Shown one piece after another: positions 2,266 through 46,158 of a stretch of DNA of 61,793 nt; the first letter of the stretch is position 1, and each line of letters begins with the position of its first letter. This DNA comes from a bacterium. Its GTDB lineage: Bacteria > Patescibacteriota > Minisyncoccia > 1-14-0-10-42-19. Location of the stretch: the NCBI GenBank assembly GCA_030690215.1, contig JAUYHD010000022.1:1-61793 (forward strand), written 5' to 3'. The translations under genes and the position numbers were made by a program. Under the pieces are notes generated by a model. That model worked only from the letters and a program-made list of their open reading frames with translations. It was not told where the DNA came from and did not search any database.

Positions 2266-4647
2266 ATGGCACAAGAAAGCAAAGGATTTAATACGCCTTT
2301 CAAGAATACGTTGAAGGGCGTTACAGGAAGGGACGCATCCGAATCTGTCCCCGAGGTGCCCAAGGAAGAAACGCGTGAGGTAAAGAAACATTCTCCAGCC
2401 TCAACGCTTCCGGGCAAGAAGAGAACCATTTCTAAGAAAACAAGAAACAAAGAAATAGGATCTTCAGAGCAGGAGCAGAAAGTCGTACAGGCGTATGAGG
2501 AGAAGGAAGACTTCGCGTTGCTTGAGCTTTTCTCAAAGAGTTTTGATTCTAAAAAATCGCGCGAAGAATCAAGACAAGAGTTTGAAGAAGAGTGCAAGAA
2601 GGCGGATATGTCTGTCGCGGCCCGCGTGTCGTTGTATATCAAGATGTTTGACGTCGCCGAGCAGATGAAGAAGAAGATTGAAGAAACCGAAAATATCGGA
2701 CAGCTAGATCCGAAGTATCAGTCTCTTATTCAGGAAGATCTTTCGAGGCTTCCTGAATTCAGAAGCAGGCTTGAGCAGGCGGAGAAAGCAAAAGAGTACG
2801 CAAGAACTCACCCATATCTTAAGGAGGAAGTTCAAGCACGACTTCTCTTCCATGAAAAAACGGCACGCATCGTATCCGATCTCGCTGGAGCAAAAGGGCT
2901 TGGCAGGCGGGCATACGAAGATTCGCTTATAGGTGTCATGGAGAAGTTCGCGGGTGTGCGCGAAGGCGGAAGCCAGCTTACTGCGTTTCCGGCGCATAAC
3001 GATGACGCTCTTATGATTAGGATCGGAGGGAAAAAGTATATTCCTTCCGGTTTTACCCAAGAGGACAAGGTGCTGTCTGAATTATGGAATAAGCTTCATG
3101 CGTATTACCGGTCCATCATCTCAATGCGCGTTGGAGAACTTATGCCGGAATTCGAAAGAATAAAGGCGTATTTCTTTGAGTGTGACGAGAATAAGGACGC
3201 CGTGTATCTAGTCGGTTCAAAGGACGCTCCAGACGAGGTTGATTTCGTGCCGGCCAAGGCGTTTATTACGCCGCGAGAGTTTGCTGAAATGATGGTTGGC
3301 GACAGGCCTCTTTCTGGCGATGGATATGTTGCCGTCCTTCTGGATATTGTCGCGGAGCGGCACATGCAGGGTGGCAAAAAAGAAGAATTCCATTACGGGA
3401 AAATGCTCGTCATTGCCGATCGTGTTGCGGACGGTAAGATGGAAACCATTGTGCAGGGTGTTATGAAGCACGATGATGACTATTATTTTAAGCAGGACAT
3501 TATCGCCGCAGAAAAGATTTACGCACGAAAACGCAAGGACGGCAGCAGGTTTGTGTATGAGTGGGATACTGATATGCCTACATACACCATAACCCCGAAT
3601 GGCGATCTGAGCGTTATTTCGCACCGTGTAGTTCGCAGCTCCTTTGAGCATGTGATAGCGGGCTACGAGCGGGAAAAAACGCAAGTAGCGAAAGAAAAAG
3701 CACGGAAACAAAGGACGAAAGCTTTCTATGAAAAGCTTGAAGCGTTTTCCAGTCTTGGGGATGTCGAGCAGCCGATTCCTTTCGCGGAGCTCTTGAGAGG
3801 GACTCCCGGTACATGGGTTTTTGACAGACCCAACTGGGAAGGAAAGCGGGTTCGCGGCTATCTCCACATACGTGAAGGGCGTGTTGCGGTATACGAATCT
3901 GTATCCGGTACGAATTATGATGATAGGGAAAAACTTAGCATTACGTTTTTCTCATCACCGGGCAAGGAAATGCCTCTCGGCGGCCTTCTCTCAAACTCGG
4001 GATTTAAGGCATTCGCACGGGATAATCTTCTTGAGCAAAAACTTCAAAAGCTATTTCGCGAGAAGAAGTTTAATGTTCAGGATATTACAGTATTATTCCC
4101 TGACACTAACGCTCTTCCGTCCGAGAATGCTTCATTCTCCGTATTCGGTTTTGAATCGGGGAAAAAGGTTGAATACGTTTTTGTATACAACTCCCACGAG
4201 AAATCGATTCGGTGGGTAAAAGCAAACGATGCTTTTGCCTATCGCATGGCGGAGAGAGTGCTTGCAATGGAAAAAGGCAAAGGATATGACATATCCGATC
4301 TGCCTGTTCCTACGCGGTATTTTCTTAGGAAAGCATGGGTAAAGAGAACAGGAAGAGAGATCAACGAGGCGCCGATATATTTTCAGCCTCCCGGTCTTGC
4401 CGAGAAGATGATGATGTCTTCGGAGCAAGCCCCGGAAACGAGGACTGAAGAGACAGAAGAGATCCATACTGTTCCCGAGACAACGGTCCCCATTGTGACG
4501 GAGACGCCAGTCGTTTCAAGTCGTATTTCTAAGATACTTTCTGCTGCCGGAGTGTCTATTGAGAAAGCTCGCGAGATGTCAGACAACGAGCTTTTGGATA
4601 TAGAGGGCCTCGGCAAGAAAGCGCTTGAGGAAATACGGAAAACGTAA
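2266..4647 (+). CDS. Hypothetical large protein with K/E-rich N-terminus and C-terminal helix-hairpin-helix (RNAP alpha-CTD-like) motif
   Basis: AAGGAGG RBS before ATG 2266. Long ORF. C-terminus reads ..SDNELLDIEGLGKKALEEIRK. No other domain recognised. Confidence 0.6.
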   Translation: MAQESKGFNTPFKNTLKGVTGRDASESVPEVPKEETREVKKHSPASTLPGKKRTISKKTRNKEIGSSEQEQKVVQAYEEKEDFALLELFSKSFDSKKSREESRQEFEEECKKADMSVAARVSLYIKMFDVAEQMKKKIEETENIGQLDPKYQSLIQEDLSRLPEFRSRLEQAEKAKEYARTHPYLKEEVQARLLFHEKTARIVSDLAGAKGLGRRAYEDSLIGVMEKFAGVREGGSQLTAFPAHNDDALMIRIGGKKYIPSGFTQEDKVLSELWNKLHAYYRSIISMRVGELMPEFERIKAYFFECDENKDAVYLVGSKDAPDEVDFVPAKAFITPREFAEMMVGDRPLSGDGYVAVLLDIVAERHMQGGKKEEFHYGKMLVIADRVADGKMETIVQGVMKHDDDYYFKQDIIAAEKIYARKRKDGSRFVYEWDTDMPTYTITPNGDLSVISHRVVRSSFEHVIAGYEREKTQVAKEKARKQRTKAFYEKLEAFSSLGDVEQPIPFAELLRGTPGTWVFDRPNWEGKRVRGYLHIREGRVAVYESVSGTNYDDREKLSITFFSSPGKEMPLGGLLSNSGFKAFARDNLLEQKLQKLFREKKFNVQDITVLFPDTNALPSENASFSVFGFESGKKVEYVFVYNSHEKSIRWVKANDAFAYRMAERVLAMEKGKGYDISDLPVPTRYFLRKAWVKRTGREINEAPIYFQPPGLAEKMMMSSEQAPETRTEETEEIHTVPETTVPIVTETPVVSSRISKILSAAGVSIEKAREMSDNELLDIEGLGKKALEEIRKT

Positions 4648-4676
4648 TCACCATATCACCATCTTTTTTAAAAAAT

Positions 4677-4716
4677 GCCCCCGCGTTTCGGATGAAATGC
4701 GGGGGCTTTACTTTTT
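4677..4716 (+). terminator. Intrinsic terminator
   Basis: GCCCCCGC..GCGGGGGC stem followed by a T-rich tract. Confidence 0.7.
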
Positions 4717-4726
4717 AAAAAAATAA

Positions 4727-4735
4727 TGGTATAAT
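4727..4735 (+). promoter_or_regulatory. Extended -10 promoter TGGTATAAT
   Basis: Exact TGnTATAAT motif 67 nt upstream of the TTG start at 4802. Confidence 0.55.
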
Positions 4736-4801
4736 CGGGGAAATTCAAAAAACCCTACATCATCCAGCTGAAAGCGGGATGATCGGGCAAGGAGGTGTTC
4801 T

Positions 4802-6037
4802 TTGACAGAACTCAATAAAGATGAAAGCTTGTATGACGTAGATGTGGCGGGGAGAAAGATTTCTGGGGGTACTCACAACGGTCCTCATGGGGAAGAGATA
4901 TATTGTCTTATTCTGCTCTATCTTGCAGGGCGGTTGTTCAAGGGCATAGGGGCGTTTCTTGATGTATACGCGCCCGATAATACAATTTATTTTGGCGTGC
5001 GGAACGGTCCGTTTGACGAGCATCCTCCGTATGCAAATGAAGAAGAGCGTAAGAAAAAAGAAAATGCCTGCGCCTTAACGCTTTTTGCGGATGCGTTAAA
5101 GGAATTCGGTTTTGACGTTATGTCTCTGCCTGCTGTAAAAGCAACAGTAGAGCATCTTCTTGAGATGGATTCTCGCGCGAAAGCGCACGCGCTTGATATA
5201 ACGAATATCATAAAGGAGATGCATAGGTATTATAGAGACCATGCTATGGAGCCAAAAACCATTGCATGGGCGTTTAAAGGATTTTTGGCAAAACTTCATG
5301 AAGATCCGGATTCATCCGAAATAACAAACTTTAATATTGACTATATTGGACTGGGTCTTATGAAAGGGTTGCCCGAAGTTTTTCCCGAGCCGGACGCGGG
5401 ACAACAGTGGTATGCTCAAGGATTGGAGGCGCATACGTATTCTCACGAGACGCTGTATCAGGAAGCCAGGTGTGAATACAAACAAAAAGTCACAGTCACC
5501 ATGAAAGGGTGGGTAGATATTGAAGCATATTTTGAGAAACACGCGCCGGTAGAAGGATTTCGGATGATGCGAAAGGTGAAGCGACAACATATGGGCGATT
5601 TATTTGTACCGATTGTATTTATCCAGTCGAATAATGTGCTTGTCGGGCGGTACGCGCGCTCAAAAGAAGCGCGTAAACTAGGGATACACGCGGGAATTCT
5701 TATTCAAAGAAACTCAAGGGACCAATACTTCATCAATTTTGACAACAAGATTGAAGAGAATGGTTTCCAGCGGTTTCCCATTGAGGGAAGTCTTGTCGTT
5801 GCTCTGTTGCGGAATGAATACCGGAAAAAAGATGGGTTGAAGCAGTTGCAGATGGGGAATAAGCGATTATATGTAGTGGGTGAAAGCGCTGATGCTCCCG
5901 ACATGTTTTATTCCAAAAAAGACACGGAGAGTATTTTGAACGGCTCCGAGACGCGTCCACATGCCAAGCCGTTACCGTTTATGCCGCCAAAAGTGTTGCT
6001 TTGCGTTATTCGCGGCGTAAGAGAACAGCGACGCTAA
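4802..6037 (+). CDS. Hypothetical protein (orphan)
   Basis: AAGGAGG RBS 7 nt before TTG 4802. 411-aa ORF with no recognised domain. Shares an LYxVG..DAPD motif with the upstream protein. Confidence 0.55.
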   Translation: MTELNKDESLYDVDVAGRKISGGTHNGPHGEEIYCLILLYLAGRLFKGIGAFLDVYAPDNTIYFGVRNGPFDEHPPYANEEERKKKENACALTLFADALKEFGFDVMSLPAVKATVEHLLEMDSRAKAHALDITNIIKEMHRYYRDHAMEPKTIAWAFKGFLAKLHEDPDSSEITNFNIDYIGLGLMKGLPEVFPEPDAGQQWYAQGLEAHTYSHETLYQEARCEYKQKVTVTMKGWVDIEAYFEKHAPVEGFRMMRKVKRQHMGDLFVPIVFIQSNNVLVGRYARSKEARKLGIHAGILIQRNSRDQYFINFDNKIEENGFQRFPIEGSLVVALLRNEYRKKDGLKQLQMGNKRLYVVGESADAPDMFYSKKDTESILNGSETRPHAKPLPFMPPKVLLCVIRGVREQRR

Positions 6038-6057
6038 ACAAAATATATACACACAAG

Positions 6058-6089
6058 AGGGCCTTCGTTTTGATACGGGGCCCTTTTTA
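6058..6089 (+). terminator. Intrinsic terminator
   Basis: AGGGCC..GGCCCT stem followed by TTTTT. Confidence 0.6.
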
Positions 6090-6492
6090 TTTGATTTATT
6101 GTTCCGCAAGGAAACTTCCCGTATGCGTATACAACGCAAAAACTCCTACCGTACTATTAACGGTGGTGAAGCGTATGGACAACCATGCTGTTTTCTACAA
6201 ACGGGGTTTGACCCCGTAGAGCAATATCGCATGATGCATTCTTATACGTCATTTTACCCCGCACCAGAAAGCTCCGAGCATAAGCTCGAGGGATAAACCC
6301 CGTTAGAAGTCTTCGGCAGAAAAATTTGTACTCAAATTTTTCTTTTACGCACAAAGATGGATTTTCTCATAACACATAAACCAAACCCTCTTTATCCTTT
6401 GTGAGGATATGCCAAACTTCTAACGGGGTGAATGGTATAAAACGAGCTTTCGGTGCGGGATTTCGCGCAACGAAAGCTCAAAAGGGTTGACA

Positions 6493-6542: not shown

Positions 6543-6646
6543 AGCGCTTCACAAAACAACGTTTTTGGAAAAGCAAGAAAACAAATCAATACGTGTGTAG
6601 TAAGCGGCGAACGCATGACGTATTATGCGATATTGCCTTACGGGGT

Positions 6647-6675
6647 TTGACCTCATTCGTTTTCTTCAGTATTAT
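6647..6675 (+). promoter_or_regulatory. Promoter TTGACC-N17-TATTAT for ftsH
   Basis: Hexamers at 6647-6652 and 6670-6675. The predicted transcription start falls at or next to ATG 6683. Confidence 0.55.
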
Positions 6676-6682
6676 GACAAAT

Positions 6683-8536
6683 ATGAAATTCTTCACAAAA
6701 AATGTTGCAATCGCAATTCTTATTTTTGTTTCGTTTGCTCTCGTGTGGTCGTTTTTTTCCAATGAACTGCGCGGAATTGAGCAGATAACTATTTCGCAAT
6801 TAGTGAACGATATCAACGCGGGTATCGTAGAAACAATTGTTGTAGAGGGGAATGAAGTGCGGGTAACGACTATTGATGGGACGGTAAAGCGCGCGAAAAA
6901 GGAATCTGATATTTCTCTTTTTGAGTCACTTACTAATTACGGCGTTTCTCCCGAACTGCTACGCCACATGTCCATTGAAATAAGCGAACCGTCAGGATTT
7001 TTATTCTGGGTAGGGGCGTTGCTCCCGTTTTTGATACCATTTCTTTTGATAATCGGATTTTTTTGGTTTGCGACACGCAATGTCCAGCGCTCCAATCTGC
7101 AAGCATTCAATTTTGGGCAGTCCCGCGCGCGCATCATCATGCCGGATGACAAAAAACAGCGCGTGACATTTGAAGATATCGCGGGGGTTGAGGAAGCAAA
7201 AGAGGAGCTCCGCGAAATAGTTGATTTTTTAAAAAATCCAACAAAGTTTACAAACATCGGCGCGCGGATTCCAAAAGGAGTGCTTTTAATGGGCGCCCCG
7301 GGAACCGGCAAAACGCTTCTTGCGCGCGCGGTTGCGGGGGAGGCGGCTGTCCCATTTTATTACTTGTCGGCTTCGGAGTTTGTTGAAATGTTCGTGGGAG
7401 TCGGCGCTTCGCGCGTACGCGATTTGTTTAAAATGGCGAAGCATTCAGCTCCTTCTATTATATTTGTTGATGAGATTGACGCGGTCGGGCGACACAGAGG
7501 AGCGGGTTTTGGCGGAGGGCATGACGAACGCGAACAGACATTAAACCAAATTCTTGTTGAACTAGACGGATTTGAACCTCACGAGTCAGTTATAGTAATG
7601 GCGGCAACTAACAGACCTGATGTTCTTGATCCTGCGCTTTTGCGTCCCGGGCGGTTTGATAGGCGCGTTGTTCTTGATTTGCCTGATATCAAAGATAGAG
7701 AGGCGATACTCAAAATTCATGCCCGAAATAAGAATTTGGAAAAAAGTGTTATTTTGCGGCGTGTTGCGGAACGCACTCCCGGATTTTCCGGCGCAGACCT
7801 GCAAAATCTCATTAATGAATCCGCCATTTTAGCTGCACGTAAAAATCGACGGCATATTACGCAGGAAGATATACTCAATTCTATTGAAAAAGTTCTTTTG
7901 GGTCCGGAACGAAAGGGCAGAATCATTTCTGAAGAAGAGAAAAAAATTACCGCCTATCATGAAGCAGGACACGCATTAATTGCCGCAGTATTGCCCGAAG
8001 CGGATCCGGTGCACAAAGTTACCATCATTTCGCGCGGGCGCGCGGGGGGCTACACCTTAAAGCTCCCGAGCCACGATAGGCGGCTTATCACAAAAACGCA
8101 TTTTGAAGGTGAGCTTGCGGTTGCTTTGGGCGGGTATGCCGCCGAGAAAATTGTATTTAAAGAATTAACGACTGGCGCATCAAACGATTTGCAGAACGCA
8201 ACCGATATTGCTCGCAGTCTTGTTACGCGGTATGGTATGTCTGATAAAGTGGGGCCGGTTGTGTTTGGGAACAGGGAAGAGTCAATATTTTTAGGAAAGG
8301 AGATGGGTATGCATGAGCGCGATTATTCCGAAGCGATTGCGAGCGTGATTGATAGCGAGGTTTCAAGTTTTATGAAGCGCGCGTTTAAACAGGCGCAGGT
8401 TATTATCACAAAATATCGCACTGTCTTGGATGCCATCGCGCACAAATTGATAGAGCAAGAATCTCTTGAACGAGAAGAATTCAATAAACTCATCAAGTCA
8501 TTTGGCATCAAACCAAAGCCGATTGTTTCCTCATAA
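6683..8536 (+). CDS. ftsH: ATP-dependent zinc metalloprotease FtsH
   Basis: N-terminal TM segments, Walker [12 protein letters not shown] second region of homology and the zinc motif HEAGHA. Start is uncertain (ATG 6674 or 6683); the track start at 6593 overlaps the promoter and repeats. Confidence 0.93.
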
Positions 8537-8555: not shown

Positions 8556-8585
8556 GGGAGTGTAGCTCAATGGTAGAGCACAGAG
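8556..8585 (+). other. tRNA-Ile-like 5' half (acceptor 5' strand, D-arm, anticodon-stem 5' strand)
   Basis: GGGAGTGTAGCTCAATGGTAGAGCACAGAG differs from the intact gene at 8602 only in the acceptor strand. Confidence 0.7.
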
Positions 8586-8601
8586 TCCCGAAAATGAATA
8601 T

Positions 8602-8673
8602 GCGCCTGTAGCTCAATGGTAGAGCACAGAGCTTATACCTCTGCGGTTCTAGGTTCGACCCCTAGCAGGCGCA
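8602..8673 (+). tRNA. tRNA-Ile(UAU)
   Basis: GCGCCTG-TA-GCTC-AATGGTA-GAGC-A-CAGAG-CTTATAC-CTCTG-CGGTT-CTAGG-TTCGACC-CCTAG-CAGGCGC-A. Anticodon is TAT. No CCA encoded. Confidence 0.85.
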
Positions 8674-8733
8674 TATTCATTTTCGAGGATCCTCGATATT
8701 TCAATAATATTTTTTTGATAAAGTATATCGGGA

Positions 8734-8816
8734 CTTATACCTCTGCGGTTCCGGGTTCGCCCGATTATTCAATCGGGCGACCGGTCGAATGACCGGTCGA
8801 GTCCTAGCAGGCCGCA
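8734..8816 (+). other. tRNA-Ile-like 3' half (anticodon loop to acceptor 3' end) carrying a 40-nt T-loop insertion
   Basis: CTTATACCTCTGCGGTTCCGGGTTCG + 40 nt + AGTCCTAGCAGGCCGCA. It is followed by a second copy of the 24-nt downstream flank TAT(T/G)CATTTTCGAGGATCCTCGAT. Confidence 0.7.
8760..8799 (+). repeat. 40-nt double-hairpin T-loop insertion, copy 1
   Basis: CCCGAT-TATTCA-ATCGGG followed by CGACCGGTC-GAAT-GACCGGTCG, inserted in GGTTCG^AGTCC. Confidence 0.75.
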
Positions 8817-8885
8817 TATGCATTTTCGAGGATCCTCGATTCCGTTCAAAACGGGGTCGGGATATAGCTGTCATTCAATCTTTGC

Positions 8886-22579: not shown

Positions 22580-22591
22580 TGGTACTATAAT
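22580..22591 (+). promoter_or_regulatory. Extended -10 promoter TGGTACTATAAT for the tRNA-Ser locus
   Basis: TATAAT at 22586-22591, about 7 nt before GGTGGGG. Confidence 0.55.
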
Positions 22592-22597
22592 GAAACA

Positions 22598-22760
22598 CGG
22601 TGGGGTGGCCGCCTGTCCGCTAAAGCTCTCGCCTCGCCGGAGCCTTCGGCGTAGCGCGGGTTAGCGTCGGCGGAAGTGGTTGAAGGCGAGAGTCTTGTTA
22701 CCGATTTGCCTGCGAGCAAAGCGAGTAGTCGCAAATCGCAATCCCGTTCCACATTTCTAT
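22598..22760 (+). other. tRNA-Ser-like 5' module with a GC-rich insertion of about 62 nt in the D-loop and a non-tRNA 3' part
   Basis: GGTGGGGTGGCC + insertion (holding GC-rich repeat copy B, 22626-22660) + AAGTGGTTGAAGGCGAGAGTCTTG. The intact gene reads GGTGGGGTGGCTGAGTGGTTGAAGGCGACAGTCTTG. Confidence 0.55.
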
Positions 22761-22873
22761 CGGAAAAAAAACGGAGGCGTGGCTGAGCGGTTGAAGGCAC
22801 CGGTCCTGTCCTCCGGAGGAGGATCCGCCTCTGGCGGAAAAACTTATTTACAAAAGTATATTTTCTTTCTTGC

Positions 22874-22963
22874 GGTGGGGTGGCTGAGTGGTTGAAGGCG
22901 ACAGTCTTGAAAACTGTTGTACTCGCAAGGGTACCGTGAGTTCGAATCTCACCCCCACCGCCA
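22874..22963 (+). tRNA. tRNA-Ser(UGA), CCA encoded
   Basis: GGTGGGG-TG-GCTGAGTGGTTGAAGGC-G-ACAGT-CTTGAAA-ACTGT-long variable arm-GTGAG-TTCGAAT-CTCAC-CCCCACC-G-CCA. Confidence 0.9.
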
Positions 22964-23010
22964 GGAAGAAAATATAAAAGTTTAGTATCCGCAAGAGTGC
23001 CGTGAGTTCG

Positions 23011-23050
23011 CCCGATCATCCGATCGGGCGCCCAGTCGAATGACTGGGCG
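23011..23050 (+). repeat. 40-nt double-hairpin T-loop insertion, copy 2
   Basis: CCCGATC-ATCC-GATCGGG followed by CGCCCAGTC-GAAT-GACTGGGCG, inserted in GAGTTCG^AATCC. Confidence 0.75.
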
Positions 23051-23084
23051 AATCCTCTCGCTTCCGTTTTCGGATAATAAGAAT

Positions 23085-33892: not shown

Positions 33893-34079
33893 AGGCATAG
33901 GTTTAAAAAAATAATCAGATTTTTTCAGGAGGGAGGGGCGCGTTAAAAGAAAAATTACAAGGGAAAATTTCTACGAGGTTGCCGCCGGAGCGTTGAGCTG
34001 CGGCGGGTGGCGGGGCGGGTCAGTTTCCCCCGAAAAAAGTTTGCGCAAAGGATATAATTTCACCGTTTTGTTCCTTTGG

Positions 34080-34207
34080 TATCAATTTATAGCGGGAAAA
34101 ACCGGAGTATCCGCAAGGATGGAAAGCAAAAGTTTTTGCTTTCCATGAGGTTCGCCCGATCGTCCGATCGGGCGCCCAGTCGAATGACTGGGCGAGTCCC
34201 CTCCCCT
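34080..34207 (+). other. Orphan tRNA 3'-like module (variable-arm-like and T-arm-like parts) with a T-loop insertion, flanked by 16-17 nt direct repeats
   Basis: GTATCCGCAAGGATGG..GAGGTTCG+40 nt+AGTCCCCTCCCCTCCG. Direct repeats CCGTTTTGTTCCTT(T)GG at 34063-34079 and 34208-34223. Confidence 0.6.
34155..34194 (+). repeat. 40-nt double-hairpin T-loop insertion, copy 3
   Basis: CCCGATC-GTCC-GATCGGG followed by CGCCCAGTC-GAAT-GACTGGGCG, inserted in GAGGTTCG^AGTCC. Confidence 0.75.
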
Positions 34208-34311
34208 CCGTTTTGTTCCTTGGATAGTATGTGGACTGTAAAAATTGAGAGAGAGAAATCGTTTAGAGATCCGGTTTCTCTTGAGGGCGTTATTAAATTG
34301 TATATTGTATT

Positions 34312-42609: not shown

Positions 42610-45600
42610 ATGAAGGAAATGGCGGATATGGAGAAAAAAGAAGTACCGGCTCAAAAAACGATATTTCCTCAGATAGAAGAGGAAGTTCTTTCGTATTGGA
42701 CGAAAAACGATACATTCAAAAAAGTTCTTGCGAAAACAGCAAAGGGCAAGAAGTTTGTCTTTTATGAAGGCCCTCCCTATGCGAATGGCCGTCCGGGTAT
42801 TCACCATGTACTTGCGCGCGCCTATAAAGACGTTGTGTTGCGGTTTAAGACGATGCAGAGATATAGCGTGCCAAGAAAAGCTGGCTGGGATACGCATGGG
42901 CTCCCTGTAGAGATGGAGGTTGAGAAAAAATTGAATGTTCATTCTAAAAAAGAAATTGAGACATTGGGGATTGAAAAATTTATTGAAACTGCACGACATA
43001 GCGTTTTTGAGTATAAAAAGGATCATGAAAAGATGACACGACGCATGGGGTATTGGTTGGATTTGGAAAATGCATATGTCACAATGACCAACGAATATAT
43101 AGCGGGTTTGTGGCGGGTGTTTGGAGAGATCGCAAAGAATGGATATGTCTACCGTGATTACAAAGTGCTTCCGTGGTGTCCCCGGTGCGAGACCTCTCTT
43201 TCGTCGCACGAAGTTGCGCAGGGATATAAAAAGGTAAAAGACACCGCGATAACCGTAAAATTTCAAATTTCTAATTCTCAATTTCCAAACACATTTTTTT
43301 TGGCATGGACTACGACGCCGTGGACTTTGCCGGGGAATGTTGCATTGGCAATAAATTCGAAAGTTAGATATGTAAAAATAAAGCCACAAGACACAAATGA
43401 GATTTATATAGTAGCAAAAGATTTATTGCTTAAGGTTTTTCCAGAGTTTAATGGAGCAGATCTCGGGTTTATAAATGGGAAAGATTTAATTGGTTTAAAG
43501 TATGAACCATTGTACGAGACGAAGACTCAAGATAAAGAATCAAAGATATACGAAGTTATTGCGGGGGATTTTGTAACCACCGAAGACGGTACTGGTATTG
43601 TGCATATTGCGCCTGCGTTCGGAGCGGATGATCAGAAAGTGGGAAAGAAAAACAATTTGCCCACGCTCGTTACGGTTGGCGAGGATGGGAAAATGAAAAC
43701 GCCGGGATACGCATGGGACGGCAAAATGTTTTTTGAGGCAAATCCAATTATTATCAAAGATCTCGCCGAAAAAAAACTTCTTTTTAAAGAAAAAGTATAC
43801 GAGCATGATTACCCATATTGCTGGCGATGCAAGTCGGCACTCATGTATTACGCAAAAAATTCGTGGTTTTTAAAAACAACCGCGGTAAAAAGCGCGATGC
43901 AGAAAGAAAACGCAAAAGTAGATTGGCACCCCGATTTTATGGGAACAAATCGGTTTGGCGAATGGCTTCGTGAAAATGTTGATTGGGCGATTTCACGCGA
44001 GCGATATTGGGGCATGCCGCTTCCAATTTGGAAATGCGATGCGTGTGATTTGCATGAAATAGTTTCTTCTCTGGAAGATTTAGACAAGCGGGCAATGCCC
44101 GATACAACAGAGCTCTATGTAATGCGCCATGGCGAAGCGACACACAATGTAAATGGAGTTGTGGGACCTGCGATTCCTAAAACAGACAAGAAGAATGAGT
44201 TAACCGAAAAGGGTAAAGAGCAGGCAAAAAAAACCGCACAAACGCTCAAAGGAAAAATTGATGTTATCGTATGCTCGCCTTTGCGCCGCACAAAGGATAC
44301 GGCGCACATTGTATCTAAGGAATTAGGGGGACTTCCCGTGGAAGTGGAAGAAAGCATCCATGATATTGATGTTGGCGAATACACGGGGAAGAAAATCATA
44401 GAAGTTAATAAAATATTTCCGCGCGAAGAACGCTTTACGCATCCCTTTCCCAACGGTGAAAGCATGCGTGATGTCCGCGTTCGCATGATGAAAAATATTC
44501 GCGATATTCTTTTGCGTAACAAAGGCAAGCGGATACTTGTTATTTCTCATGGCGATCCGTTGTGGGAACTCTACGCCGCTCTTGAAGGAAAGAAAGAAGA
44601 AGATTATTTTGCCTCGTGGTATCCGAAAACGGGAGAAACAAAAAAATTAGATTTGCACAACTGGCCGTATAGCATGGAACGGGGCGAACTTGATTTTCAC
44701 CGGCCGTATATTGACGGTATTTTGCTTCAATGCAAAAAATGCAAAAAAGAGATGCGTCGTATCCCTGATGTCGCTGATGTCTGGTTTGATTCGGGCGCAA
44801 TGCCGTATGCGCAAAATTCAGATTCGTTACAAGTAATTGGAAATTGGAAATTGTCCTCCAAAGGCGGATCCGCCTCGGGCGGAAAAATTGAAAATTTGCG
44901 CAAGCATATAGATTATCCTGCTGACTATATTTGCGAGGGGGTTGACCAGACGAGGGGATGGTTTTATACATTGCTCGCGGTTGCCTCCCTCATGCATCTT
45001 CCGGTGCCGTACGAAAATGTAATAACGGTTGGTTTGGTTCTTGATAAAAAAGGCGAGAAGATGTCAAAATCGCGCGGTAACACTGTTGACCCGTTTTTAC
45101 TTTTTGAGCAGTATGGCGCGGATGCGGTGCGATGGTATTTTTATACGATTAATCAGCCATGGGACGAAAAATTATTTGATGAACGCGACGTGCAATCGGC
45201 CTCCCGTAAGTTTTTGATGATATTTTGGAATGTATTTCGGTATTGGGAAGGCATTACGCATAGCGCAAATTTAAAATTACAAATTCCAAAACCGAAATTA
45301 TTAATTAATATCTGGCTGTTGGCGCGCTTGCAAGAAGTTTCAATCTCTATAACAAAACACCTAGAAGAGTATGAAGTTGTAAAAGCGGCGCGTCTCCTTG
45401 AAGAATTTGTGGGAGAAGACATATCGCGCTGGTATGTGCGCCGTATCCGGGATGGTATGAAAATAGGAAAAGAAAACGAACGAAACGAGACCGATGCCGT
45501 GCTGGGTTTCGTACTGCGCGCAACTTCGCTTCTTGCAGCACCTTTCGCGCCGTTTATAAGCGAAGCGGTAGGAAGGCGTGCGGGCATACACCATAGCGTT

Positions 45601-46158
45601 CACGAAGAAACATGGCCGAAATATAAGGCGGTAGGCGTGAAGGAAAGGGTGTTGTTGGAAGACATGAAAGAAGCGCGGGGCATCGTTTCTTTGGCGTTGC
45701 AAGAGCGCGCAAAAGCCGGCATAAAAGTGCGCCAACCACTCGCTTCGCTTAAGCTCAAAGCTCAAAGCTCAAAGCTCAAAGCTGATAAAGAATTGCAAGA
45801 ATTAATAAAAGGAGAGGTGAACATAAAAGATATCGTATTTGATGCACATATAAAAAATTCAGTTGAGCTTGATACGGCGCTTACTCCGGAATTAAAACGA
45901 GAAGGATCGTTCCGCGAGCTTGTGCGGCGCATACAAGACATGCGCAAAGAAGCAGGTCTTACCCCCAAAGATTCAATTATTCTTCATATCGGAAGCGATG
46001 AAAAAGGAAAAGCATTTATTGATGAATACAAAAAAGATATTCAAACAGCGGTGACCGCGGAATCAATTGTTGAAGAGGCGCTTTCGCATCAGCTTTTTAT
46101 GAAGGCAGTCCTGCAGATTGATGATTACTATTTTGAAATTGGAATTATTAAAAAATAG
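42610..46158 (+). CDS. ileS: Isoleucine--tRNA ligase (type 2) with an inserted histidine-phosphatase domain
   Basis: PYANGRPGIHH (HIGH), CP1 editing motif TTTPWTLPGN, DWAISRERYWG, KMSKSRGN. Residues from about 500 to 690 carry RHGE, SPLRRT and SHG motifs. Confidence 0.95.
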   Translation: MKEMADMEKKEVPAQKTIFPQIEEEVLSYWTKNDTFKKVLAKTAKGKKFVFYEGPPYANGRPGIHHVLARAYKDVVLRFKTMQRYSVPRKAGWDTHGLPVEMEVEKKLNVHSKKEIETLGIEKFIETARHSVFEYKKDHEKMTRRMGYWLDLENAYVTMTNEYIAGLWRVFGEIAKNGYVYRDYKVLPWCPRCETSLSSHEVAQGYKKVKDTAITVKFQISNSQFPNTFFLAWTTTPWTLPGNVALAINSKVRYVKIKPQDTNEIYIVAKDLLLKVFPEFNGADLGFINGKDLIGLKYEPLYETKTQDKESKIYEVIAGDFVTTEDGTGIVHIAPAFGADDQKVGKKNNLPTLVTVGEDGKMKTPGYAWDGKMFFEANPIIIKDLAEKKLLFKEKVYEHDYPYCWRCKSALMYYAKNSWFLKTTAVKSAMQKENAKVDWHPDFMGTNRFGEWLRENVDWAISRERYWGMPLPIWKCDACDLHEIVSSLEDLDKRAMPDTTELYVMRHGEATHNVNGVVGPAIPKTDKKNELTEKGKEQAKKTAQTLKGKIDVIVCSPLRRTKDTAHIVSKELGGLPVEVEESIHDIDVGEYTGKKIIEVNKIFPREERFTHPFPNGESMRDVRVRMMKNIRDILLRNKGKRILVISHGDPLWELYAALEGKKEEDYFASWYPKTGETKKLDLHNWPYSMERGELDFHRPYIDGILLQCKKCKKEMRRIPDVADVWFDSGAMPYAQNSDSLQVIGNWKLSSKGGSASGGKIENLRKHIDYPADYICEGVDQTRGWFYTLLAVASLMHLPVPYENVITVGLVLDKKGEKMSKSRGNTVDPFLLFEQYGADAVRWYFYTINQPWDEKLFDERDVQSASRKFLMIFWNVFRYWEGITHSANLKLQIPKPKLLINIWLLARLQEVSISITKHLEEYEVVKAARLLEEFVGEDISRWYVRRIRDGMKIGKENERNETDAVLGFVLRATSLLAAPFAPFISEAVGRRAGIHHSVHEETWPKYKAVGVKERVLLEDMKEARGIVSLALQERAKAGIKVRQPLASLKLKAQSSKLKADKELQELIKGEVNIKDIVFDAHIKNSVELDTALTPELKREGSFRELVRRIQDMRKEAGLTPKDSIILHIGSDEKGKAFIDEYKKDIQTAVTAESIVEEALSHQLFMKAVLQIDDYYFEIGIIKK

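Follow-up and report, generated by a model that had tools for sequence, protein, structure and literature searches.

A bacterial tRNA-Ser gene that lies intact between the two parts of a second, tRNA-Ser-like gene, and downstream of a third, disrupted copy, raises the question of whether such a locus is a composite gene requiring splicing or the trace of another process. We analysed this arrangement in a window of 61,793 nucleotides, the whole stretch of DNA under study, from a bacterium of the CPR/Patescibacteria. A first-pass annotation of the same sequence had proposed three elements followed by outer 3' parts, and had argued for a mechanism (processing, splicing or a targeted mobile element) rather than chance. 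All the proposed parts are present in the sequence, with small coordinate corrections (Table 1).

Table 1. Features of the tRNA-Ser locus and of related sites in the window.
Feature	Position	Strand	Remark
Promoter-like -10 region TGGTACTATAAT	22581..22592	+	common to the relative's orthologous locus
Element 1, disrupted pseudo-tRNA-Ser directly 3' of the promoter	22599..22753	+	
GC-rich nested-hairpin block, 64 nt, in the D-loop of element 1	22610..22673	+	contains CCGCTAAAGC
Element 2, 5' half of another tRNA-Ser allele (positions 1 to ~35)	22773..22808	+	
Type-2 GC double hairpin, left junction	22809..22838	+	TCCTCC-GG-AGGAGGA then TCCGCC-TCT-GGCGGA
Helix 5' arm, extends the inner tRNA acceptor stem by 17 bp	22857..22873	+	17/17 identical in L151
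Intact tRNA-Ser(UGA), encoded CCA	22874..22963	+	ARAGORN call; Rfam RF00005, 59.7 bits
Helix 3' arm, overlapping the discriminator base and CCA	22960..22976	+	
Outer relic 3' half: anticodon-loop 3' side (AAA GTTTA), variable-arm copy, T-stem 5' strand, TTCG	22977..23010	+	
Type-1 T-loop double hairpin H, 40 nt	23011..23050	+	CCCGATC-ATCC-GATCGGG, CG, CCCAGTC-GAAT-GACTGGG, CG
Outer relic: T-loop 3' side, T-stem 3' strand, acceptor 3' strand CGCTTCC (23059-23065), discriminator G	23051..23066	+	
Ile sister locus: intact tRNA-Ile(UAU) (8601-8674) inside remnants of another tRNA-Ile copy	8556..8830	+	
Third relic, heavily disrupted tRNA-Ser-like gene	33929..34211	+	5' GGAGGGAGGGG, 3' CCCCTCCCCTCC-G
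Type-2 GC double hairpin in the isoleucyl-tRNA synthetase ORF (42610-46158)	44854..44883	+	in frame

The inner tRNA-Ser(UGA) is the working gene and the only functional-looking one at the locus. ARAGORN and Rfam agree with its annotation as intact; it was the sole match in the Ser locus, where no other part reached an Rfam family, and over the whole window Rfam returned four tRNAs only, at the gathering cut-off and at E values up to 10. The arms that flank the gene form 15 Watson-Crick pairs and one G-U pair with one mismatch, which agrees with the 16 of 17 pairings first proposed, and the helix is coaxial with the acceptor stem. The minimum-free-energy fold includes it (z = -5.7). Among 247 tRNAs of the collected loci (those of other CPR genomes are designated L below), the acceptor stem is extended by 0-4 bp in 228 and by at least 9 bp in just 12, so the helix is not a chance pairing, and it appears to belong genuinely to the inner cassette. 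Such helices recur round cassette tRNAs, with unrelated sequences and preserved complementarity. The excess of G-U (19) over A-C (7) in these helices fits pairing at the RNA level. The helix is most likely an RNA processing stem that would release the tRNA from a composite transcript, for example as the substrate of a double-strand RNase, and to this extent it fits the 'processing' option.

The pieces around the inner gene were compared with intact alleles. The promoter-like region (TGGTACTATAAT) aligns with GCTACTATTATG just 5' of the intact tRNA-Ser of L145 and with GGTATTGTAAAC in L151; in the window, a simple sigma-70 scan of the + strand at this region gave no full -35/-10 match. Element 1 occupies the position where L145 has its functional tRNA-Ser(UGA), and its 5' end and D/anticodon-stem parts are similar to the inner allele: GGTGGGGTGGC (22599-22609) repeats exactly the 11 nt with which the intact tRNA begins (22874-22884), and AAGTGGTTGAAGGCGAGAGTCTTG (22674-22697) matches 22887-22909 at 22 of 23 positions. 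Its tail AATCCCGTTCCAC is able to pair with its own 5' end. The D-loop insertion, first estimated at about 62 nt, is slightly longer, and ARAGORN found no tRNA in element 1 after this block had been removed. CCGCTAAAGC within the block is the motif of a third GC-hairpin family; in L016, a tRNA-Ser-like copy also has a block at this D-loop position, which is shorter and contains ACGCTAAAGCTTCGG. Element 2 (GGAGGCGTGGCTGAGCGGTTGAAGGCACCGGTCCTG, acceptor strand GGAGGCG) breaks in the anticodon loop, as annotated, the last bases being C(C)TG. Over 33 nt it shares 94% identity with the 5' part of the L054 tRNA-Ser(CGA), and its acceptor strand is that of the intact L052 tRNA-Ser(UGA).

On the 3' side, the degenerate variable-arm and T-stem copy (22985-23010) is identical to 22919-22944 of the inner tRNA at 22 of 26 positions, and the T-loop insertion that follows is exactly as long as annotated. 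The order of intact tRNA, short spacer and decorated 3' copy was found also in L128 and L052. The outer relic ends in AATCCTCT-CGCTTCC-G, and GGAGGCG (22773-22779) does pair with CGCTTCC at 7 of 7 positions, one of them G-U. From this, the first-pass annotation had concluded that the outer acceptor strands are kept complementary. GGAGGCG/CGCCTCC is the acceptor stem of the intact L052 tRNA-Ser(UGA), from which the window copy differs by one C-to-T change, and the pairing is better read as a relic. A 3' partner for the anticodon-stem strand CCGGT of element 2 is absent, as had been noted, since GTTTA does not pair with it. The outer Ser gene has a poor T stem, and removal of the insertions in silico produces the 'anticodons' tta, tag, agt or gta, never one for Ser; the outer Ile gene, treated in the same way, gave no tRNA.

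The Ile locus shares this architecture, as had been claimed. It has a perfect 12-bp flanking helix and a T-loop insert (H, 8760-8799) homologous to that of the Ser locus; the insertion is bounded by TCCCG...CGGGA. The third relic, with H at 34155-34194 (not in the first-pass annotation) and an extra hairpin at 34121-34144, has no intact tRNA inside, and ARAGORN found nothing in it after removal of H, tmRNA included. The nested layout recurs beyond the window's Ile locus, in L022 (Val), L128 (Ser), L071 and L149 (Ile) and L056 (Lys). It is not due to chance.

To characterize the T-loop insert H, we searched genomes, which gave 20 loci with 10 true hits, nearly all in CPR MAGs, and metagenomes, which gave at least 120 loci. 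Altogether, at least 145 copies were found in about 134 CPR loci and the window. Among the matches listed, 107 distinct sequences occur, with 99.1% of cells paired. Both sides have changed in 13 of 16 pairs, and none of 500 shuffles was equally good. The stems are almost purely Watson-Crick, G-U (7) being no commoner than A-C (5), and the loops ATNC and GNAT are mutual reverse complements; stems without G-U preference and reverse-complementary loops point to a DNA-level palindrome. In the collected loci, 250 of 274 type-1 hairpins lie within T-loop double hairpins, the remainder being nested in another hairpin or located in tRNA copies, in the D-loop or the anticodon loop; none was seen in a protein gene. 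A large serine recombinase att site, considered on account of the dyad and central CG of H, was rejected because no general co-occurrence with recombinase genes was found; the window itself gave only a spurious antisense match of a serine recombinase to a tRNA. A phage origin was also discarded, with no match in GenBank phages or IMG/VR.

The hairpins of the left junction (TCCTCCGGAGGAGGA, 22809-22823, and TCCGCCTCTGGCGGA, 22824-22838) belong to a different type, and the second of them is identical in L151. The pattern TCCGCC-N3-4-GGCGGA gives 66 strand-hits, and type-2 hairpins are found in coding sequence, between genes, and in pseudo-tRNAs at the D-loop and the anticodon loop. The window holds three type-1 and two type-2 copies. 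One type-2 copy encodes SSKGGSASGGK in a variable linker of the isoleucyl-tRNA synthetase (IleRS), which spans 31 aa between the conserved motifs MPYAQ and YPADYI vs 13 aa in PDB 8c9d. With this double hairpin in frame, the hairpins behave as DNA insertions. Weak Rfam matches of the hairpins to CRISPR-DR9 and miRNA families (E up to 10) were set aside as chance palindrome matches.

The copies of H are closely associated with intact genes. Among the matches listed, 104 of 145 adjoin an intact tRNA of any identity on the same strand, and one adjoins an intact tmRNA gene. We considered whether 'lone' decorated T-loops might be tmRNAs; after removal of H, ARAGORN gave a tmRNA in L103 alone, which has an intact tmRNA with the decorated piece as a downstream copy. 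The repeated 3' ends are 7-100 nt apart, and decorated copies in other genomes are often truncated, lacking the 5' body or the 3' acceptor strand. The displaced 3' end derives from a diverged allele in 49 of 74 pairs and is identical to the intact tRNA in the other 25, so that 'immunity by allele difference' is not general. L061 and L123 carry reciprocal Ile alleles. At L022, deleting the insertions turns the outer tRNA-Val into a perfect tRNA, and at L055 a tRNA-Ser(GGA) that stands alone at full length, bears H and has its own promoter is canonical after the same deletion; because of these two cases, H may be removed at the RNA level at some loci.

Among the matches listed, an ORF of ~85 aa encoding a predicted GIY-YIG nuclease of the UPF0213 type lies immediately 5' of the intact tRNA at 41 loci. 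These 47 ORFs match PF01541 above the curated cut-off, and their nearest solved structures are the UPF0213 proteins 1ywl and 1zg2. Most end between -1 and 47 nt before the intact tRNA, for which the chance expectation (ends within 50 nt of the tRNA start) is under 1%, and about 25 start 8-45 nt past a decorated T-loop. The cassette protein is a bare catalytic domain, without a DNA-binding domain, and has no match in PHROG. A tblastn search found no such ORF in the window, so that the link of the window to the nuclease rests on relatives; the window copies would be ORF-less derivatives.

Orthologous loci were found with the upstream membrane protein and FtsH as synteny anchors. The downstream gene Zincin_1 was tried and abandoned as an anchor, its closest homologues (87%, 67% and 64% identity) having other neighbours and no tRNA-Ser. 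In L145-147, a plain tRNA-Ser(UGA) begins where element 1 begins, with no relics, no H and no helix. The closer relative L151 contains the same inner cassette, nearly identical, with only one outer 5' half; this counterpart of element 2 is strongly diverged, far more so than the cassette. Between L151 and the window, the leader and the 5' helix arm are as conserved as the inner tRNA itself. The orthologous Ser locus is thus empty in L145-147, occupied by one layer in L151 and by more layers in the window. In L149, the orthologous Ile locus, a different inner allele with its own helix lies inside remnants of the window-type allele. Occupied and empty alleles with co-conversion of flanks, together with this Ile allele swap, are what a homing cassette should display, and the multi-copy, short hairpins with compensatory stem changes are what a palindromic repeat should display.

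Given the anatomy and recurrence of the locus, the covariation, the association with ORFs, and the presence/absence and allele turnover in relatives, we consider it probable that selfish DNA with tRNA genes as its targets has left this locus as a layered footprint, and that the locus is not a gene requiring splicing. Of the mechanisms first envisaged, the targeted mobile element is retained and splicing is not, the outer pieces never giving a tRNA-Ser. In other CPR genomes, the full element consists of a 5' remnant of the resident tRNA with a GC-hairpin cap, the GIY-YIG ORF, a complete replacement tRNA, often with an acceptor-extending inverted repeat, and then a short spacer, GGTTCG, the 40-nt double hairpin and the 3' end displaced from the resident tRNA. 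We infer the cutting activity, the precise cut sites and the origin of the hairpins as follows. The nuclease or another structure-specific activity would break the resident tRNA gene in a loop, at CTTG^AAAA (35/36) in the anticodon loop of tRNA-Ser(UGA) and at 57/58 or an adjacent position in the T-loop. The cassette would then be copied in by recombinational repair from a cassette-bearing donor; the cell would survive thanks to the intact tRNA that the cassette supplies, and the resident gene would remain as non-functional halves, which would decay and gather further palindromic hairpin insertions. The window would have passed through at least two such rounds and lost the ORF, leaving element 1, element 2 and the 3' half as relics, and the 17-bp flanking helix would be part of the cassette. 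Some cassettes have H at both junctions (L065), and the left junction of the window has a different hairpin type; a single insertion model cannot derive either situation.

Selfish cassettes targeting tRNA genes have to be weighed against explanations that dispense with a nuclease or with mobility. Partial tRNA duplications might arise through ordinary recombination, slippage or an integrase, with autonomous palindromic elements, similar to RPEs, GC clusters or MITEs, entering the redundant copies and the GIY-YIG ORFs merely favouring the same neighbourhoods. The window, with its relics and hairpins and no ORF, agrees with such a scenario, as do the type-2 hairpins of ordinary intergenic DNA and the one in frame within IleRS, the hairpin within a hairpin of L072, and the serine recombinase genes that abut the orthologous tRNA-Ser and two other H loci. 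We nevertheless find it rather unlikely: ORF position is extremely regular, most of the 47 ending less than 50 nt from the start of the intact tRNA; displaced ends often come from foreign alleles, an outcome that simple duplication would not yield; the distance between repeated 3' ends is too short for integrase-borne islands; and serine recombinases occur in only 5 of about 150 loci. Alternatively, the host could keep the decorated pieces as cis-acting RNA, whether as processing guides, 3'-end protection (REP-like), tRNA-operon spacers or decoys for tRNA-targeting nucleases. Many H fragments do lie between co-oriented tRNAs 16-70 nt apart, where they are probably co-transcribed, and the conserved leader and 5' helix arm and the G-U excess in the flanking helices can be read in the same sense. 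This proposal appears improbable to us, since H stems show no G-U preference, equivalent sites have anywhere between 0 and 5 copies, the orthologous locus functions with neither relics nor H, the outer 5' half decays fast, and fragments lack partner strands for tRNA-like folding.

The outer gene might still be a genuine interrupted tRNA-Ser, from which an endonuclease and a ligase would remove the hairpins and the inner tRNA as introns, or whose halves would act in trans like archaeal split tRNAs. Its fully paired acceptor strands, the location of every insertion in a loop and the canonical outer tRNA-Val (L022) and tRNA-Ser(GGA) (L055) that result from deletion speak in its favour. Against these stand the missing anticodon-stem partner, the poor T stem and the nonsense anticodons obtained by 'splicing' in the window, and also hairpins that are paired right up to their boundaries, with no 3-nt bulges and no bulge-helix-bulge. 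No Rfam intron matched, and a group I intron was rejected separately, with no Rfam match but tRNA (E up to 10) and insertions of 22-64 nt vs a core of at least 200 nt. The processing enzymes whose presence had been proposed as a check left no RNase III or RtcB signature motif in the window, which is weak evidence as its 62 kb cover little of the genome. Elsewhere, copies are commonly truncated, most listed decorated copies adjoin an intact tRNA, and in relatives the outer gene is missing (L145-147) or degraded (L151). Such splicing is, in our judgement, highly improbable.

The selfish cassettes resemble several known systems without coinciding with any of them. REP/BIME repeats with RAYT transposases and IS200/IS605 are hairpin-defined elements. 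They share with the CPR elements the hairpin-defined repeats in inverted pairs, the recognition apparently by structure and few conserved bases, and insertion beside a short fixed sequence (TTCG); unlike them, the CPR elements show no HUH/Y1 transposase and are tied to tRNA T-loops, not to gene 3' ends generally. Integrative elements with attachment sites in tRNA and tmRNA genes reportedly (Williams, writing in 2002) duplicate the 3' part of the gene. Here too, tRNA and tmRNA genes are hit in anticodon-loop and T-loop sublocations, a 3'-end direct repeat is left and the intact gene is regenerated, but there is no island between the closely spaced repeats and no general integrase, the hairpin pair sits inside the repeated T-loop, and orphan 5' halves occur. 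Endonuclease ORFs of fungal mitochondria, for example in Allomyces atp6, bring a replacement gene end and displace the resident one. Homing endonuclease genes of the GIY-YIG family can also be free-standing, such as segB in the tRNA gene cluster of phage T4 (PMC2330249). The common points are a small nuclease gene beside or inside an essential RNA or protein gene, a working copy that makes the host gene disruptable, a displaced resident fragment kept downstream, and presence/absence and allele replacement between relatives. The CPR cassettes differ in their bare UPF0213/YhbQ-type catalytic domain, whose cleavage is putative, in a cargo that is a whole tRNA, in the conserved GC hairpins at the junctions, and in their targets, which are loops within chromosomal tRNA and tmRNA genes of a cell.

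Rickettsia palindromic elements are short palindromic selfish repeats. Mitochondrial GC clusters, double-hairpin elements and repetitive hairpin-forming elements are of the same nature (PMC4478555, PMC2800124). The CPR hairpins are likewise GC-rich in an AT-richer genome, present in many copies per genome and built as two-hairpin units; their stems are kept via compensatory change, and they occur in RNA genes and in frame in protein genes. In contrast to such repeats, type-1 H lies almost exclusively in tRNA-like T-loops with fixed orientation, is made up of one hairpin type in two inverted copies whose loops are conserved, and is tied to the duplication of tRNA-gene parts and to a nuclease ORF. 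In archaea, disrupted tRNA genes of the multi-intron, split or permuted kinds are processed by a splicing endonuclease at bulge-helix-bulge motifs (PMC3241643, PMC9602550). They too have insertions at the D-, anticodon- and T-loops that look transposable among tRNAs, and complementary leader/trailer helices, whereas the present loci are bacterial, lack the bulge-helix-bulge, have incomplete outer genes and almost always an intact copy adjacent.

More tentatively, and with rather more doubt than confidence, we suggest that CPR/Patescibacteria may carry an undescribed class of mobile elements attacking the single-stranded loops of tRNA and tmRNA genes, which would combine a GIY-YIG nuclease of minimal UPF0213 type, a replacement tRNA whose processing helix prolongs the acceptor stem, and double hairpins of specific orientation capping the displaced halves. 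Insertion or removal of the hairpins at the RNA level would be a bolder sub-case. Full-text literature searches gave no description of these elements in CPR bacteria. We know of no role for the small UPF0213/YhbQ nucleases, whose structures have been solved; if the proposal is true, it would give this widespread family its first biological role, and it offers a testable substrate. tRNA genes are regarded as stable, passive landing pads for integrases. In this huge and poorly known bacterial radiation, they appear instead to be repeatedly replaced by cassettes bearing a copy. Such elements would explain tRNA-like fragments and GC-rich hairpins in AT-rich spacers of CPR genomes, odd peptide insertions in essential proteins and contig breaks at tRNA loci. 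Splicing should not be assumed when tRNA-like sequences annotated in bacteria are nested or 'interrupted'. The mobile class, if real, would drive a continual turnover of tRNA alleles. Amplification of H cassettes is recent, because L076 has five near-identical 70-nt units 3' of tRNA-Asp, L047 contains a tandem duplication of a decorated tRNA with its ORF, and L065 and L139 each have an ORF form together with an ORF-less form.

The tRNA-Ser locus of the window is an ORF-less, degenerate example of a cassette family, i.e. of proposed selfish units that carry a replacement tRNA and, in some loci, a GIY-YIG ORF. All the parts listed in the first-pass annotation are present at 22599-23066, and only the inner tRNA-Ser(UGA) scores as a tRNA (ARAGORN; Rfam 59.7 bits); a permissive Rfam scan revealed no other family at the locus. 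The fold of the whole region is much better than that of shuffled sequence (z = -5.7). The D-loop insertion of element 1, the tRNA-Ser-like 5' module, is GC-rich and parts two inner-tRNA-like stretches as described, but its size is 64 nt instead of about 62 nt; a third GC-hairpin family (loop ACGCTAAAGCTTCGG) contributes to this block. The second 5' part, element 2, indeed ends at a break within the anticodon loop, past which come two GC hairpins. The 17-nt arms around the inner tRNA, paired by hand at 16 of 17 positions, form 15 Watson-Crick pairs, one G-U pair and one mismatch, coaxial with the acceptor stem. On the 3' side lie a variable arm and T-stem copy (22/26 identical), TTCG, a 40-nt insertion and AATCCTCT-CGCTTCC-G, whose CGCTTCC pairs with GGAGGCG of element 2 at 7/7 positions, one being the G-U pair already reported. 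Neighbouring proteins point to CPR/Patescibacteria, near Candidatus Niyogibacteria and Paceibacteria.

Features of the tRNA-Ser locus and related elements in the window
Feature	Coordinates	Description
Element 1	start 22599	first 11 nt and stretch 22674-22697 common to inner tRNA
Third-family GC hairpin	22617	in D-loop block of element 1
Element 2	22773-22808	5' half of a different tRNA-Ser allele, acceptor strand GGAGGCG
Two GC hairpins	22809-22838	after element 2
Inner tRNA-Ser(UGA)	22874-22963	
Double hairpin H	23011-23050	40-nt insertion in T-loop
Ile locus	8556-8830	
tRNA-Ile (anticodon UAU)	8601-8674	
Disrupted tRNA-Ser-like relic	33929-34211	
Extra hairpin of relic	34121-34144	
Third H copy	34155-34194	within relic
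IleRS ORF	42610-46158	
GC double hairpin in IleRS	44854-44883	in frame

Copies of the third GC-hairpin family share the conserved loop (A/C)CGC(T/C)AA(A/G)GC(T)TCGG on variable stems. They were also seen in L016 (339), L082 (590 and 680), L043, L044, L012 and L010, L numbers denoting collected loci of relatives or other CPR bacteria; some lie within reading frames, as in L043 at the ORF start.

The 40-nt insertion is a double hairpin, H. A hairpin-1 pattern search matched 20 species-representative genome loci, ten of which hold the full H element; nearly all of these are CPR MAGs (Paceibacterales, Buchananbacteria, Moranbacteria, Saccharibacteria, Parcubacteria). The other ten, in which hairpin 2 is missing, are chance matches in high-GC sequence. 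A hairpin-2 pattern that left hairpin 1 free retrieved at least 120 metagenome loci. Genome loci, metagenome loci and the window contain at least 145 decorated T-loops, i.e. T-loops of tRNA-like sequences with H inside. The unit reads TTC-[G + 7-nt stem + ATNC + stem' + C]-[G + stem + GNAT + stem' + C]-G-A and consists of two inverted copies of one hairpin type. In 107 distinct sequences among the matches listed, 99.1% of cells pair and both sides change at 13 of 16 pairs; none of 500 shuffles came near this pairing and covariation. Hairpin 1, unconstrained by the search, has Watson-Crick pairs in 412 of 427 cases, G-U (7) being no commoner than A-C (5). This near-pure Watson-Crick pairing and the mirror-image loops suggest that a DNA-level palindrome fits H better than an RNA helix. 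Among the matches listed, 250 of 274 hairpins of this type belong to T-loop double hairpins. The remaining ones are single (18 nt plus 4 nt, CCTG or CTTG); tRNA copies carry them in the D-loop, the anticodon loop or the anticodon stem, or else they are nested within another hairpin's loop. Nothing similar was found in phage collections, which argues that the elements are not phage-borne. Two MAGs labelled 'uncultured Gammaproteobacteria' (L006, L012) also carry CPR-type decorated T-loops adjoining tRNAs; these may be misbinned contigs, or the element may extend beyond CPR.

An intact same-strand tRNA lies close to 104 of the 145 decorated T-loops among the matches listed, 16 more being too close to a contig end for judging. 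The commonest form (76 cases among these matches) consists of an intact tRNA of any identity, 3-100 nt, GGTTCG, H and a 3' T-stem plus acceptor strand, and its match to the tRNA before TTCG spans only 1-3 nt. Of 74 analysable pairs among the matches listed, 49 have a displaced 3' end that represents a diverged allele of the tRNA type concerned; a third of the displaced ends do not differ from the intact tRNA. Ile alleles occur reciprocally: allele 1 is intact and allele 2 displaced in L061, the opposite in L123. In the second form, a decorated 5' copy precedes an ORF of about 85 aa and the intact tRNA. Its product is a GIY-YIG catalytic domain (PF01541 match above cut-off); the UPF0213 proteins 1ywl and 1zg2 are nearest to it, and no phage family matched. 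Such ORFs number 47 among the matches listed, spread over 41 loci; the majority end -1 to 47 nt from the start of an intact tRNA, and about 25 start 8-45 nt past a decorated T-loop. L065 and L139 combine both forms, with decorated 5' copy, ORF, intact tRNA and decorated 3' fragment(s). In L076 (1303-1730), five tandem units of 70 nt come after tRNA-Asp; they are nearly identical and each is composed of spacer, GGTTCG, double hairpin and tRNA 3' end. L047 contains two identical units of decorated tRNA and ORF; we read both repeats as recent amplification. An intact tmRNA gene in L103 (~5730-6145; tag ANENLAFATA) is followed by an H-decorated duplicate of its 3' end, suggesting that tmRNA genes are also targets. 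Cassettes and hairpins are tied to tRNA and tmRNA genes, where the intact gene is regenerated beside displaced halves, with tandem growth and allele turnover.

Long acceptor-extending helices, which the first-pass annotation suggested looking for around other tRNAs, were found in 12 of 247 locus tRNAs (9-21 bp), the extension being 0-4 bp in 228. The twelve are cassette tRNAs that adjoin a GIY-YIG ORF or share a contig with a decorated fragment (15-230 nt away in most, ~1.1 kb in two tRNA-Asn loci). The arm sequences are unrelated between these tRNAs yet complementary within each, and G-U pairs (19) exceed A-C (7), a modest count under a helix-end definition that favours G-U. We consider with moderate confidence that this helix pairs in the sense RNA, and read it as a putative processing stem of the cassette tRNA.

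As claimed, the nested design recurs in the Ile locus, whose layout is that of the tRNA-Ser locus; it was also seen in L022, L128, L071 and L056. In L022, an intact tRNA-Val(UAC), framed by long inverted repeats, lies in the D-loop of an outer tRNA-Val(UAC), whose T-loop carries an insertion too. In the other three loci, the 5' remnant breaks off in the D-loop or anticodon region and is capped by hairpins; a spacer leads on to the intact tRNA and then to a decorated 3' fragment. At the left junctions the hairpins belong to a second type, with TCCGCC-N3-4-GGCGGA at its end, which also occurs in plain intergenic DNA and coding sequence. One second-type GC double hairpin, of the family found after element 2, lies in frame in the IleRS gene of the window; it encodes SSKGGSASGGK in the linker between the conserved motifs MPYAQ and YPADYI (31 aa, versus 13 aa in one solved IleRS), a behaviour like that of Rickettsia palindromic elements. 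The third H copy of the window sits in a tRNA-Ser-like relic that is heavily disrupted, ~190 nt of structured sequence having been inserted; its acceptor strands are similar to those of the L145 allele, and neither inside it nor nearby is there an intact tRNA.

Three relatives (L145-147, a 459-kb contig and two others; neighbour protein 76% identical) share with the window the gene order tRNA-Arg(GCG), membrane protein, tRNA-Ser(UGA). Their tRNA-Ser(UGA) is plain (acceptor GGAGGGG/CCCCTCC), without relics or H, and starts just past the same promoter-like TACTAT(A/T)AT box as does element 1 of the window. L151, with the same neighbour gene and from the same sample as the closest Zincin homologue, has after the promoter one decayed GGAGGG-type 5' half broken after CTTG, a different hairpin, then the same TCCGCCTCTGGCGGA hairpin, spacer and inner tRNA as the window, and its contig ends within the T-arm. 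The 5' arm of the 17-bp helix is identical in L151, and the helix is absent from L145-147. L151 and the window are nearly identical from the hairpin to the contig end, and differ at about a quarter of positions in the outer 5' half. At the Ile locus of L149 (FtsH 86% identical), remnants of the window-type allele enclose another inner allele, which has a 10-11-bp helix of its own. By sequence comparison, relatives display gain, layering and allele replacement at these loci, and the outer pieces are seen to evolve unconstrained. In L145-L147, large serine recombinase genes (4379-5950, 6613-8040) flank the tRNA-Ser/membrane protein/tRNA-Arg block, and the called ORF of 523 aa crosses the tRNA-Ser gene in antisense. 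L084 and L142 have homologues close to tRNAs.

Splicing, one of the mechanisms put forward for the outer tRNA-Ser, is not supported by in-silico deletion of its insertions, which never yields a tRNA-Ser: ARAGORN accepts some joins, with 'anticodons' tta, tag, agt or gta only, and recognizes no tRNA in element 1 or the Ile outer gene once insertions are deleted. As noticed before, nothing pairs with the anticodon-stem strand CCGGT; the outer gene also has a poor T stem. The outer acceptor strands, previously said to be kept complementary, match the stem of the intact tRNA-Ser(UGA) of L052 (GGAGGCG/CGCCTCC) with one C-to-T in the window, so that their pairing is best read as inherited, not maintained. 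Elsewhere, a perfect tRNA lies beneath the insertions in two cases, L022 Val and L055 Ser(GGA), so that H may at times be tolerated or removed. Archaeal-type introns or split tRNAs, group I introns and integrase att duplication were rejected by tests of their defining features. The tRNA-Ser(GGA) of L055 (935-1066) is stand-alone and full-length, with its own promoter-like TGGTATAAT box, H in the T-loop and single mismatches in T stem, acceptor stem and hairpin 1; this 1.5-kb contig carries no intact copy.

The breakpoints fall in loops: three Ser remnants are broken at CTTG^AAAA and Ile at 31/32, and the H breakpoint is in the T-loop. We propose that a loop-directed break would be made in the tRNA gene, possibly by the GIY-YIG protein, a relative of the structure-specific nucleases of the Slx1/UPF0213 branch. 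Repair would then use a cassette-bearing donor and bring in the ORF and the replacement tRNA, and the hairpins would either arrive as part of the cassette ends or be later insertions into copies no longer needed. This mechanism leaves unaccounted for the H at both junctions of some cassettes and the displaced ends identical to the intact tRNA. The same replacement-part logic is known from endonuclease genes of fungal mitochondria. Free-standing homing endonuclease genes (T4 SegB, PMC2330249) likewise sit among or inside essential genes and supply the replacement part. Rickettsia palindromic elements are similar to these hairpins, and so are mitochondrial GC clusters or double-hairpin elements (PMC4478555, PMC2800124). 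We rate the family as a variation on known kinds; our literature search found no prior description of it in CPR bacteria.

In the Ile locus, TCCCG...CGGGA delimits the insertion with the inner tRNA-Ile; the palindrome CGAGGATCCTCGAT lies within this insertion and recurs past the outer 3' end. In L056 (10880-11363), the 5' remnant of a tRNA-Lys carries an insertion built of the same motifs (TCCCGAT...CGAGGATCCACGAT...ATCGGGA), and such insertions may form a further small element family. The tRNA-Ile lies directly 3' of ftsH in many Paceibacteria-like contigs (window, L013, L061, L071, L123, L149, L150). Many FtsH homologues from the protein search are partial, some (P0140, P0143) being cut at the contig end, which might reflect assembly breaks at repeat-rich tRNA loci.
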